A stretch of 64,000 nucleotides of DNA from Promethearchaeota archaeon (GCA_048940645.1 JBHLOI010000001.1:1-64000); one strand, 5' to 3'. Shown: positions 60,968 to 64,000, numbered from the stretch's first letter. Made by a program: numbers and translations. The notes: generated by a model from the letters alone, not told the origin.

Positions 60968-62002
60968 TTATAAATTTACTAAACAATATTCGACAAATTT
61001 TAGAGGGTCTATAGCACATCCTCCTGAATCTAAACCTCCCAATTCATTTAATATACTCTCATCAATTGGATTTTCATTGAGCCATAAACCCTTCAAGTTC
61101 AATAAAGATTCTAAACCTTTAATTTTAGATATTTCGTTATTACCTAAATCTAAAGTCTCTAATTCTTGTAGTGTTTCTAATCCTTTAATTACGGAAATTT
61201 GATTTCCAGAAAGAAATAATTGATTTAATTTTACCAAAGGATATAATCCACTTATTTGACGTATTTTATTATTCTTTAAATTTAATACTTGTAAATTTTT
61301 ACAATTCTCCAATCCTTGGATTTTTTCTATTTGATTTGAAGTAATCTGAAAAGTATTCAAGTTTTTGAGTGAGCCTAATCCTTTTACTTCTGTTATTATA
61401 TTATCATTAAGATATAACTCTGTGAGGTCAATTAAGTTATCCAAGCCTTCTATTTCGGTTATTTGGTTTCCCGCAAGATTTAAAACTTTAAGCTTTTCCA
61501 AATTTTCAATCCTCTCTATTTTCTTAATTTGATTCCCAGCTACCCACAGAACTTCTAAATTCTCCAGATAATCAAGTCCTTTTAGTTCAGTGATCTCATT
61601 CCATGAAAGATCTAATTTTTGAACTGCTTCTAAAGTATCTAAACCTTTTATTTCTTCTATTCTATTACCTCGAAGATATAATTCTTTTAAATTAGTAAGG
61701 TTTTCTAGTCCTTTTATTTCAGTGATTTGATTTGAGATTAGGTGTAAAATCTGTAAATTTTCTAATTGATCCAGTCCTGATATATCAATTATACTATTAC
61801 TTCCAAGGTTTAAAATTTCTAGAGAAATTAGATGTCCTAAGCCTTTAATTTCAGTTAAGTCATTAGAGCTCAATTCAAGATTTTTTAAATCAATTGACTC
61901 TAATCCCTTAATTTCAGAGATGTCTTCGATACCTAATAATCCAAGATCAAGGAAATCCTCCTCAACTCCATATCTCTCACCCTTATATTCTACATAACTC
62001 AT
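60968..62002 (-). CDS. Leucine-rich repeat protein (22-residue SDS22-like repeats)
   Basis: 13 counted LxLxxNxIxxIxGLxxLxxL repeats. Confidence 0.92.
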   Translation of the reverse strand: MSYVEYKGERYGVEEDFLDLGLLGIEDISEIKGLESIDLKNLELSSNDLTEIKGLGHLISLEILNLGSNSIIDISGLDQLENLQILHLISNQITEIKGLENLTNLKELYLRGNRIEEIKGLDTLEAVQKLDLSWNEITELKGLDYLENLEVLWVAGNQIKKIERIENLEKLKVLNLAGNQITEIEGLDNLIDLTELYLNDNIITEVKGLGSLKNLNTFQITSNQIEKIQGLENCKNLQVLNLKNNKIRQISGLYPLVKLNQLFLSGNQISVIKGLETLQELETLDLGNNEISKIKGLESLLNLKGLWLNENPIDESILNELGGLDSGGCAIDPLKFVEYCLVNL

Positions 62003-62136
62003 AACATTCCCATGACTAAAAATAACTATTTAAATAAAAATGGAAGCTCTGAAAAATATATTAATTCATATAAAATTTATAATTTATCTTTATAAAATTA
62101 GAATTTCATTTTATTTGATAAAAATAATGTGAAAAA

Positions 62137-63096
62137 TTATGAGAAAATATAATTATCAATATTATTATCCATTTCTAATACTTCATTTATCATCATCAAC
62201 AATTCTTCATGATTGAACTTATCTACATTTATAAACTTATTTGCTAATTCATAATATTTATGATAAATTTCACGCTCTACTAAATTTTTTAATTTAGAAC
62301 TAAAAGAATAAAGATAAGAATAAACCTCCTTATATTGCCCATGAGTTACTGATCCTTTAGCTAAAACCAAATTTAGTGATTCCTTTGCTTGGCTTAAGTA
62401 ATATCGTAATTTAGCTTTTCTTTCCTCTATTTCATTTATTAATGTTTTTGCACTTTTCTGGAATTCCACTAATGTATTTTTATCTAATAATTTCTCACTA
62501 ATGTTGATTATATCTTGGCATTTCTCGAGCTTTTTGAGTAAAATGATTTCCTTTTCAAAATTTTTTATTAGCTCATCTCTTTCTATTCTAAGTCTTTCTA
62601 TCTCATCCTTTATTTTTATAGAAATTTCTCCCTTTTGATCCCATATAGACTTTAAAATATCCCCGCGTTTCTCTATAATAAAATTTGGATCTAAAATACC
62701 TTTTTGAGATAACATTATTTCATTTATATCTTTATTAAAATTCTCGAATAAATCGCGGTTTACTTGATTTTCTTCAAACAAATCTTTATATTGTAACATA
62801 AGAGCGGTAATTTTTGGATTTAATTTACTGATATTTTTGCTGTCTTCTTTATCAGCTATTAAAATAAGATCAATTGAAAGTTCTGGAATTTGGGAAATAT
62901 AAGCATTAACTTCTCCTAATCCGACTGTTTTTAACTCATCTTTTTTATCGGACATGACTCCAGAAATAAACGCCTTCAATGCAGTATAAAAAGAGCCAAA
63001 CATATCCATATGTTTTTTATCCTTAACTTGAAAATCTTTATCGTATAAGAGTATTCCCGAATCAGATCGATAAAGAAATAAAAAGTAAAGCAACAA
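62137..63096 (-). CDS. Longin-like domain protein with C-terminal coiled-coil/helical region
   Basis: N-terminal LYFLFLY..DSGILLYDKDF...MFGSFYTALKAF...ELKTVGLG...LILIAD pattern resembling Asgard longin domains. Confidence 0.65.
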   Translation of the reverse strand: MLLYFLFLYRSDSGILLYDKDFQVKDKKHMDMFGSFYTALKAFISGVMSDKKDELKTVGLGEVNAYISQIPELSIDLILIADKEDSKNISKLNPKITALMLQYKDLFEENQVNRDLFENFNKDINEIMLSQKGILDPNFIIEKRGDILKSIWDQKGEISIKIKDEIERLRIERDELIKNFEKEIILLKKLEKCQDIINISEKLLDKNTLVEFQKSAKTLINEIEERKAKLRYYLSQAKESLNLVLAKGSVTHGQYKEVYSYLYSFSSKLKNLVEREIYHKYYELANKFINVDKFNHEELLMMINEVLEMDNNIDNYIFS

Positions 63097-63256
63097 AATG
63101 ACCTCTCTATGGTGATATCTTAAAAAATGTTAATTTTTAATACTTATATTTCAATTACTTCTTGATATTATAAATATAATAAGAAATATTTATTCTACCT
63201 TTATTCCATAACTTTAAATTTTATAATTTTTCAAATAAATATCTAAATGAAATAAT

Positions 63257-63370
63257 ATGTTGATTTGTAGAAATTGTGGTATGATAATTGATGGGAACAA
63301 TGAAGGATATCTTTTCTGCCGTTCTTGTAATAAGATTACATATTTTATATCATATAGATTTAAGTGATAA
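63257..63370 (+). CDS. Zinc-finger microprotein, candidate selenoprotein: MLICRNCGMIIDGNNEGYLFCRSCNKITYFISYRFK(U)
   Basis: ATG at 63257, Cx2C-x13-Cx2C, TGA at 63365-63367 immediately followed by TAA at 63368-63370; TGA aligns with Cys of the downstream paralog; SECIS-like hairpin follows. Confidence 0.65.
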
Positions 63371-63403
63371 AAAGTATAATTTAAAAAGAATTTTGAAAAT
63401 AGA

Positions 63404-63439
63404 ATGAAGCTTGCATTAAAATATTAGATGCAAGTTGAC
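63404..63439 (+). ncRNA. Eukaryote-like SECIS element candidate (cis-acting 3'-UTR structure)
   Basis: AUGA + AGCUUGCAU / loop UAAAAUAUUAG / AUGCAAGUU + GAC: 9-bp helix (one G-U) closed by AUGA...GA tandem G-A core, with an A-run at the 5' side of the loop. Confidence 0.65.
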
Positions 63440-63440
63440 G

Positions 63441-63461
63441 ACCCTGCGAGGGTGCTTTTTT
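63441..63461 (+). terminator. GC-rich mini-hairpin plus T-tract (possible transcript end)
   Basis: ACCCT-GCG-AGGGT followed by GCTTTTTT immediately 3' of the SECIS-like hairpin. Confidence 0.4.
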
Positions 63462-63583
63462 GACCTAATTTATGAAATATTACTATTTCTTAAAATTTGA
63501 GTTATCTAGTTAAGATATTAATATAGAACTATTTCTGTATTAAAATAAGAACTTTTTAAAAGTCAATTCTTTATTCATTTAGT

Positions 63584-63748
63584 ATGAAGGTAGTGGCATG
63601 TAAAGAATGTGGATTCTCCATTGAAAATAAGGATCCTGGAGTTTATTATTGCGAAAATTGCGCTAAAAATAAGAAATTTTTTACAGTTCAAGCTTTTTGC
63701 GGCGCAAAACCTGATAGTGAACTCTATGAACATGAAGAAGCTTCATAA
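63584..63748 (+). CDS. Zinc-finger microprotein (54 aa), Cys-containing paralog: MKVVACKECGFSIENKDPGVYYCENCAKNKKFFTVQAFCGAKPDSELYEHEEAS
   Basis: Manually translated; identical Cx2C-x13-Cx2C spacing to the upstream micro-ORF plus a fifth Cys. Confidence 0.75.
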   Translation: MKVVACKECGFSIENKDPGVYYCENCAKNKKFFTVQAFCGAKPDSELYEHEEAS

Positions 63749-63831
63749 AAGTTAAAAAAAGTATCCTTTTTCTTTTGATTTTTAATTTTATTGTGCAATA
63801 ATATTTTATTAAACCGCTCTTTCCTTATACT

Positions 63832-64000
63832 ATGACAGAAGCGTTATATATGGACGACTCCTATCTTAAGAAATGGGATGCGAGTGTTGTTAGTGTAAAG
63901 GAAGGTAAATACATCGTGCTAGATAAAACTGCATTTTACCCTAAGGGAGGAGGCCAACCTTGGGATGAAGGTTATATTGGTAAAAATGGTAATATGTTCA
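63832..64000 (+). CDS. alaX: Alanyl-tRNA editing protein AlaX (N-terminal fragment, runs off the window)
   Basis: MTEALYMDDSYLKKWDASV...IVLDKTAFYPKGGGQPWDEG. Confidence 0.85.
   Translation, partial: MTEALYMDDSYLKKWDASVVSVKEGKYIVLDKTAFYPKGGGQPWDEGYIGKNGNMF

Follow-up and report, generated by a model that had tools for sequence, protein, structure and literature searches.

A putative 37-residue selenoprotein with selenocysteine as its C-terminal residue and a Lokiarchaeia-type SECIS in a Promethearchaeota genome

In Lokiarchaeia, selenoprotein genes such as PrxL, HdrA-VhuD/FrhD and VhuU/FrhA are served by the lokiSECIS, an element which consists of AUGA, a 9-bp stem, an 11-nt loop that is A-rich at its start and ends in AG, and then GA (Mariotti 2016; PMC4989117); the same study reported that existing SECIS covariance models miss this element. 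Huang 2024 (PMC11227280) described a type I eSECIS-like element, whose features match those of the hairpin reported here, as well as seven Asgard selenoprotein families (i.e., SelD, FrhA/VhuU, HdrA, FrhD/VhuD, PrxL, AhpF-N-like and DsbA-like), all of them found via homology, and a 2026 review gives the same seven families. As the case reported here illustrates, micro-selenoproteins escape both gene callers and homology pipelines.

The locus reported here lies in a stretch of 64,000 nucleotides from a Promethearchaeota archaeon (GCA_048940645.1, JBHLOI010000001.1:1-64000), which is referred to as the window throughout; its features are collected in Table 1. ORF1 resembles the lokiSECIS genes of Lokiarchaeia (PrxL, HdrA-VhuD/FrhD and VhuU/FrhA; PMC4989117, PMC11227280) in the type of its 3'-UTR signal, in the organisms that carry it and in the decoding machinery. 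Compared to the selenoproteins encoded by these genes, the ORF1 product is only 37 aa long and unrelated to all seven families, with Sec as its last residue and a stop directly after it. Moreover, UGA and SECIS are 33-55 nt apart in ORF1 as opposed to roughly 200-360 nt (estimated) for VhuD and PrxL in this genome, and, unlike in the other Lokiarchaeia selenoprotein genes, an additional hairpin joins the SECIS of ORF1 in a three-way junction. Judging from comparative sequence analyses, in which the evidence on ORF1 comes from MAG sequences throughout (the carriers found are known as MAGs), we consider it highly likely that ORF1 is a real gene for a four-cysteine knuckle protein in which UGA37 would be read as a C-terminal Sec via a lokiSECIS.

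Table 1. Features of the ORF1 and ORF2 locus, with positions counted from the first base of the window
Feature	Position	Strand	Description
Putative ORF1 promoter (AT-rich TATA/BRE-like block)	63204-63230	+	about 30-50 nt 5' of the ATG
(A/T)TGA(T/A) motif, possible Shine-Dalgarno-like site	63247-63251	+	6-10 nt before the start codon
ORF1, candidate Sec gene	63257-63370	+	36 sense codons (63257-63364), TGA (63365-63367), TAA (63368-63370)
Outer (lower) helix, 5' strand	63383-63388	+	closes the SECIS and the second hairpin; pairs with 63455-63460 in the MFE fold
lokiSECIS	63404-63439	+	AUGA 63404-63407; 9-bp stem 63408-63416/63428-63436; loop 63417-63427; GA 63437-63438; C 63439
Second G+C-rich mini-hairpin	63441-63453	+	ACCCU-GCG-AGGGU; directly 3' of the SECIS; present in orthologs
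U-run	63455-63461	+	forms the 3' side of the lower helix, is a putative archaeal terminator signal, or both
ORF2, Cys paralog, 54 aa	63584-63748	+	CxxC…CxxC…AF-C39-GAKP plus acidic tail; Cys39 is TGC (63698-63700)

The reading frame of ORF1 (M-LICRNCG…CRSCNK…RFK-TGA-TAA; 37 codons including the TGA) was compared among 29 same-genus sequences, i.e., ORF1 and 28 orthologs (set A). Throughout this alignment there were no indels, the ATG was invariant and the sense length was constant at 36 codons. Residues M1, C4, C7, G17, C21, C24, K26, F35 and K36 were invariant, and the codons for the invariant Cys (TGT/TGC), G17, F35 and K36 showed synonymous changes only. Mean column entropies at the first, second and third codon positions were 0.72, 0.53 and 1.15, respectively, a variation by codon position that is typical for coding DNA; these data show in silico that ORF1 is coding. 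The 36-aa sequence of ORF1 was absent from a collection of 15 billion proteins, and one 37-aa Cys form that was looked up was likewise absent from this collection.

The genes 5' of ORF1 are on the strand opposite to ORF1. In this part of the window, the minus strand encodes a protein of 319 aa, much of it predicted coiled coil (62137-63096), and a 344-aa leucine-rich-repeat protein (60968-62002). The AT-rich block that precedes ORF1 is probably its promoter; most same-genus orthologs have a block resembling it (…ttataa(t/a)tt…aaa(c/t)tttaaaa) at an equal distance from the ATG. The (A/T)TGA(T/A) motif could possibly serve as a Shine-Dalgarno-like site. A tgat/tgaa motif is found at about -8 to -12 from the start of ORF1 in nearly all of the 29 same-genus orthologs and is presumably complementary to the GAUCA portion of the archaeal 16S 3' tail.

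The first-pass annotation had proposed that ORF1 and ORF2 are micro-ORFs with a common cysteine pattern, and both were indeed found to contain CxxCG-x13-CxxC. As single sequences within the genome, ORF1 and ORF2 show 28-29% identity (E 0.016-0.05), and hhalign joined the two ortholog families in an ungapped alignment (residues 2-34 versus 4-36) with a probability of 96.5% (E = 9.9e-10). On the evidence of these sequence comparisons, ORF2 is a true paralog of ORF1. A further claim had been that the UGA of ORF1 falls on the fifth Cys of the paralog (Cys39); the constant offset of +2 in the alignment does place U37 on C39, with the last three residues matched by ungapped extension only. None of the recovered ORF2-type orthologs has lost Cys39. 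At six loci of the same genus (L048, L049 and L061-L064), the cluster also contains a paralog of a third type (M-K/Q-YYIICKxCG…ELF-D-GSKPG…), in which Asp occupies the position of Cys39 in ORF2 and of Sec in ORF1.

ORF2 is present in protein databases as a "hypothetical protein", and a locus search with ORF2 returned relatives named Promethearchaeia or Promethearchaeota (i.e., Lokiarchaeia) MAGs, plus three chance zinc-ribbon matches from Clostridia; the host is of the Lokiarchaeia type that had been assumed at the outset. As ORF2 contains no in-frame TGA and the genes 5' of ORF1 are on the opposite strand, there is no other client gene for the hairpin. The idea that ORF2 represents a "Cys backup" of ORF1 is unlikely, since ORF2 is a diverged paralog that ends in a conserved acidic tail of its own and is found alongside ORF1. 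The further suggestion of a "selenium-sensing unit" is likewise speculative. The Sec/Cys pairing of ORF1 is decided by its orthologs (51 with TGA versus five with TGT) rather than by ORF2.

A profile of the ORF1 family was searched against 154 genomes of the order, and matches from outside the genus were then retrieved; in this search the family was confined to the window's own taxonomic family. In addition to set A, 22 further Sec forms (set B) were available, of which 4 belong to the same genus and 18 to eight others. All 51 Sec-form orthologs, which represent nine genera of one family of Promethearchaeia, end in K-TGA-TAR, a count which overstates the number of independent events as the orthologs are related by descent, and this end is still kept where protein identity to ORF1 is down to about 39-40%. 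The second stop across the 51 Sec forms is TAA in 42 and TAG in 9. Among set-A sequences, the end reads (R/Q)FK-TGA-TAR in 29/29, with TGA at codon 37 in all 29; codon 36 (Lys) is AAA in 17 and AAG in 12 sequences, and codon 38 is TAA in 23 and TAG in 6. Five orthologs (L095, L099, L101, L105 and L106; genera g27 and g28) are Cys forms with K-TGT-TAR at this end, and codon 37 is neither TAA nor TAG in any of the 51 + 5 ORF1-family orthologs.

Long open frames of this genome (29.8% G+C) use TAA, TAG and TGA as stops at 73%, 15% and 12.7%, respectively, and an in-frame TAR directly follows the TGA in 14 of the 203 TGA-ended long frames. ORF2 orthologs from the same genomes were used as a control; their stops are a mixture of TAA, TAG and TGA, which indicates that a true stop codon at this locus does drift. 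The retention of TGA-TAR in all 51 Sec forms is far beyond chance, and, in silico, the UGA is kept where a plain stop codon would be expected to drift.

The genomes that carry Cys forms are still Sec users. This was judged from an in-frame TGA in the PrxL gene that immediately follows the Cys form and from the presence of SepSecS, since a tRNA-Sec above the Rfam cut-off was found in only one of these five genomes, with sub-threshold 103-nt matches in the others. In G090, G095, G099 and G125, the best tRNA-Sec candidates were 103-nt full-model matches with only 38-40 bits, and these lineages may have a tRNA-Sec with an insertion or an intron. SepSecS was found in 128 of the 135 genomes of the family, including all Cys-form genomes, and a comparison between ORF1 presence and Sec use is thus uninformative. 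The locus L112 (G153:C10:34655-35568, minus strand) reads …YHYCPL-U-KSIQYFMVFSFK-U-stop, with a second in-frame TGA exactly at the position of the fourth Cys ligand and with the SECIS kept (51.7 bits); this single MAG sequence may represent a variant with two Sec residues, one of them a selenolate ligand to the metal, or else an assembly error.

The hairpin 3' of ORF1 agrees in each feature with the lokiSECIS of Mariotti 2016, and its AUGA starts 36 nt 3' of the ORF1 UGA, just as the first-pass annotation had described. AUGA is located right before the main stem; its UGA is invariant among the 29 set-A sequences, and the preceding base is A, with G in one sequence. The stem has 9 bp and the apical loop (UAAAAUAUUAG) has 11 nt (11-12 nt in orthologs), with an invariant AAA run and an invariant final G that is preceded by A in at least 90% of sequences. 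After the stem, the GA/AA position shows G in at least 90% of sequences (A in a few), followed by an invariant A and an invariant C. The hairpin was found 3' of the TGA in 51/51 Sec forms, in 50 cases at a distance of 33-55 nt and thus in the 3' UTR near the end of the coding sequence, and in 0/5 Cys forms. RNAalifold and explicit pair counting with the 29 sequences found 91% of the stem cells paired, with compensatory changes at 8 of the 9 pairs; none of 500 shuffles reached the observed stem score, and slid controls of the stem were 25-47% paired. The UGA-SECIS spacing of ORF1 is below the minimum reported for a eukaryotic gene (51-111 nt) and also below the spacing in this genome's other selenoprotein genes, which may limit the efficiency of recoding. 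An Rfam scan of window positions 62000-64000 (E up to 10) gave chance matches only and no SECIS family (SECIS_1 or others), a result to be expected as the lokiSECIS is missed by existing SECIS models (PMC4989117) and is not in Rfam.

SECIS and second hairpin are enclosed by the outer helix, which has at least 4 bp in 35/50 orthologs; the sequence of this helix is lineage-variable, and its covariation was judged by eye. In the second hairpin, pairs 65-75, 66-74 and 67-73 are retained, with some compensatory changes. The SECIS, the mini-hairpin and the outer helix together form a three-way junction in most orthologs, and the U-run at its 3' side may act as a terminator.

A covariance model (R1) was built from the 29 ORF1 hairpins alone and searched over the whole genome. 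In addition to the self-match at ORF1 (65.9 bits), R1 matched directly 3' of PrxL, of HdrA and of two HdrA-VhuD pairs in the same genome, at positions 8-10 nt or less past the ends of PrxL, HdrA and VhuD. The matched PrxL gene reads …GNW-U-NHC…, and VhuD in both HdrA-VhuD pairs contains two in-frame TGAs. As a model made only from ORF1 hairpins retrieves the SECIS of PrxL, HdrA and VhuD, the ORF1 hairpin is the very element used by the accepted selenoprotein genes of this archaeon. With filters off, R1 also matched 22/22 of the set-B Sec forms (29-66 bits), none of which had been used in building the model. No second R1 element was found on contig C11, and thus no SECIS is located 3' of ORF2, in keeping with the earlier remark that the Cys paralog has no such hairpin. 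One R1 match (C64:3000-3047; 26.9 bits) was rejected as a false positive, as it has neither an AUGA nor a plausible UGA-containing gene 5' of it.

R1 also pointed to a second unannotated candidate selenoprotein on contig C120 (11535-11776; L076:1309-1550, plus strand), i.e., a 47-codon ORF ending in TGA with a lokiSECIS (31.5 bits) approx. 55 nt after the TGA. This ORF encodes a basic N-terminus and a single TM helix followed by …NGGG, and read-through would give GGG-U-x-C and a tail of 13-20 aa; at least 10 genomes of the genus share both the motif and the SECIS. R1 matches 3' of this membrane ORF family carry the same ACCCCGCAAGGGU hairpin as the ORF1 locus.

The genome contains a tRNA-Sec (62 bits; ARAGORN call SeC(tca)) whose gene adjoins SepSecS and is near an EFSec-like gene (236 bits). 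The latter as well as a PSTK-like gene (168 bits) gave strong matches, albeit with scores short of the equivalog cut-offs set for the euryarchaeal and bacterial models, and SelD contains an in-frame TGA. The ORF1 locus thus presents the standard in silico marks of a selenoprotein gene, i.e., a UGA/Cys column, co-occurrence with a SECIS and a set of decoding machinery. The first-pass annotation had expected TGA or TGY in this column across orthologs, the hairpin beside TGA alleles and a Sec machinery in the genome, and all three were found; its proposal of a C-terminal Sec in ORF1 is supported by these data.

Searches of ORF1 against Pfam and NCBIfam gave sub-threshold zinc-ribbon matches only and matched no known selenoprotein model, which bears out the initial view that ORF1 is unrelated to known selenoprotein families. 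A PDB profile search with ORF1 returned chance matches (designed "Cake" repeat proteins and CD8) and very weak zinc-ribbon ones. AlphaFold2 with the 29 sequences gave a weak model (mean pLDDT of 66.6), in which the knuckles are flanked by short β-strands and the tail is disordered (residues 34-37, below 50). Based on the invariant CxxC pairs, ORF1 is predicted to be a zinc-ribbon or rubredoxin-like knuckle protein whose candidate metal site would hold either Zn or Fe, and the terminal selenolate may represent a redox-active or soft-metal-binding flexible arm.

At 13 loci in genera g24, g26, g27, g28 and g29 (5-6 other genera), an ORF1-family gene directly precedes PrxL in the same orientation, a placement that hints at a redox partnership. 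In the window's own genus, the neighbors of ORF1 are ORF2 and an AlaX-like gene and not PrxL, and the link between PrxL and ORF1 is thus indirect. In view of the 13 loci we favor a putative redox role with PrxL, with soft-metal binding as a second choice. The more specific idea that the ORF1 product serves PrxL as a dedicated partner with a selenolate "swinging arm", and that its SECIS works below the known eukaryotic spacing, is a speculative one that we consider rather unlikely. In the PrxL genes located 3' of the ORF1-family gene in L102 and L103 (g27) and in L116 (g26), which read …FFRGGW-U-VY-U… or …W-U-HG-U…, both redox positions are TGA (UxxU); the corresponding motif is UxxC in this genome and in g28.

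We propose that UGA codon 37 of ORF1 would be decoded as Sec to give the C-terminal residue, with termination at the adjacent UAA. Recoding would be directed by the Lokiarchaeia-type SECIS (a kink-turn AUGA…GA core, a 9-bp stem and an A-rich 11-nt loop), which would act from the 3' UTR, 36 nt downstream, and be read by the tRNA-Sec/PSTK/SepSecS/EFSec system of the genome. Sec is replaced by Cys in orthologs that lost the SECIS, and the likeliest partner of the protein would be the Prx-like (UxxC) selenoprotein. Termination at the UGA would yield a product only one residue shorter than the Sec product, and Sec may thus be present in only part of the protein made.

That UGA is the last sense position, with two products one residue apart, would also be compatible with ORF1 being a selenium-sensing leader peptide, in which the terminal UGA reports on Sec-tRNA and tunes the downstream PrxL or ORF2 and the peptide itself is of minor importance. 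The location of the gene immediately upstream of PrxL at 13 loci, and upstream of the Cys paralog ORF2 here, would fit such a role. Unlike typical leaders, however, the peptide shows strong purifying selection from end to end (four Cys, G17, K26 and F35-K36), and the Cys forms keep their terminal Cys but lose the SECIS, which argues for a chemical role of the last residue; in addition, the U-run and the hairpin after the SECIS resemble a terminator that would separate ORF1 from ORF2. We regard a leader function as improbable.

Chance TGA-TAR tandems occur in AT-rich genomes, as the 14/203 observed here illustrate, and kink-turns are common in archaea as L7Ae sites. Together with the lack of a match to any Rfam SECIS model, this could be taken to mean that TGA-TAA is an ordinary double stop, that ORF1 is a 36-residue zinc ribbon and that the hairpin is some other kink-turn element (L7Ae-binding, stabilizing or terminator). 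Under 70% A+T and a TAA share of 73%, an ordinary stop should have changed; however, TGA became TAA or TAG in 0/51 sequences, and the sole change observed, TGA to TGT, is always accompanied by loss of the hairpin. Moreover, the model of this hairpin finds the SECIS of PrxL, HdrA and VhuD, and existing SECIS models miss the lokiSECIS anyway (PMC4989117). An ordinary double stop is thus very improbable. The absence of ORF1 from the 15-billion-protein collection, i.e., its not being predicted by gene callers, would be expected if the region were a conserved non-coding RNA and ORF1 fortuitous, yet this is at odds with the three-base periodicity, the synonymous changes at invariant codons, the fixed length of 36 codons without indels and the homology of the ORF1 family to the annotated ORF2 protein family, and the probability of a non-coding origin appears close to negligible.

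A literature search found no paper joining selenoprotein, Asgard and zinc ribbon. The ORF1 family is missing from the searchable published catalogues of Asgard selenoproteins and is very probably new, whereas decoding via the lokiSECIS is known. Unlike the seven published Asgard families, which are all shared with other prokaryotes, the ORF1 family has so far been found in one Promethearchaeia family only; it would be the smallest Asgard selenoprotein family, with Sec as the literal C-terminal residue. ORF1 bears on the minimal UGA-SECIS distance and on how release factor and EFSec compete when the UGA is terminal, and the natural Sec to Cys orthologs represent built-in controls. If the "swinging arm" idea, rather unlikely in our view, were true, ORF1 would be a stand-alone, minimal counterpart to the Sec arm at the C-terminus of eukaryotic thioredoxin reductase, as well as a natural minimal system for archaeal or proto-eukaryotic communication between SECIS and ribosome without SBP2.

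Several described proteins resemble the ORF1 product in part. SaoC (NCBIfam NF040734; PMC13188914) is a bacterial "Cys-Cys-COOH" selenoprotein with a C-terminal CU, for which a role as metal or substrate ligand has been proposed. Like the ORF1 product, it is small and has Sec at its extreme C-terminus; it differs in its bacterial origin and in its CU end, as compared to FK-U in ORF1. SaoC is decoded via a bacterial in-frame SECIS. A comparison of ORF1 with the SaoC model (NF040734) listed no match at E up to 10. NCBIfam family NF041197 (OS_HP3; RxU motif) is similar to ORF1 in being tiny, with a dual CxxC and with Sec near the C-terminus, and is different in being bacterial and marine and in the position and motif of its Sec; membership of ORF1 in this family was rejected (12.2 bits as compared to a cut-off of 40, with residues 18-27 and one CxxC matched). 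Zinc-ribbon miniproteins (Zn_ribbon_RRN7, Zn_ribbon_Nudix, DUF7577 and HVO_2753-like) have the CxxC-x13-CxxC spacing of ORF1, but the matches of ORF1 to them are all below the Pfam and NCBIfam cut-offs, and they have no Sec.

Among eukaryotic proteins, thioredoxin reductase (GCUG) as well as SELENOK and SELENOS carry Sec on a flexible C-terminal tail and use a kink-turn SECIS in the 3' UTR. Compared to ORF1, these proteins are much larger and show no homology, and their Sec is located at the penultimate or antepenultimate position.
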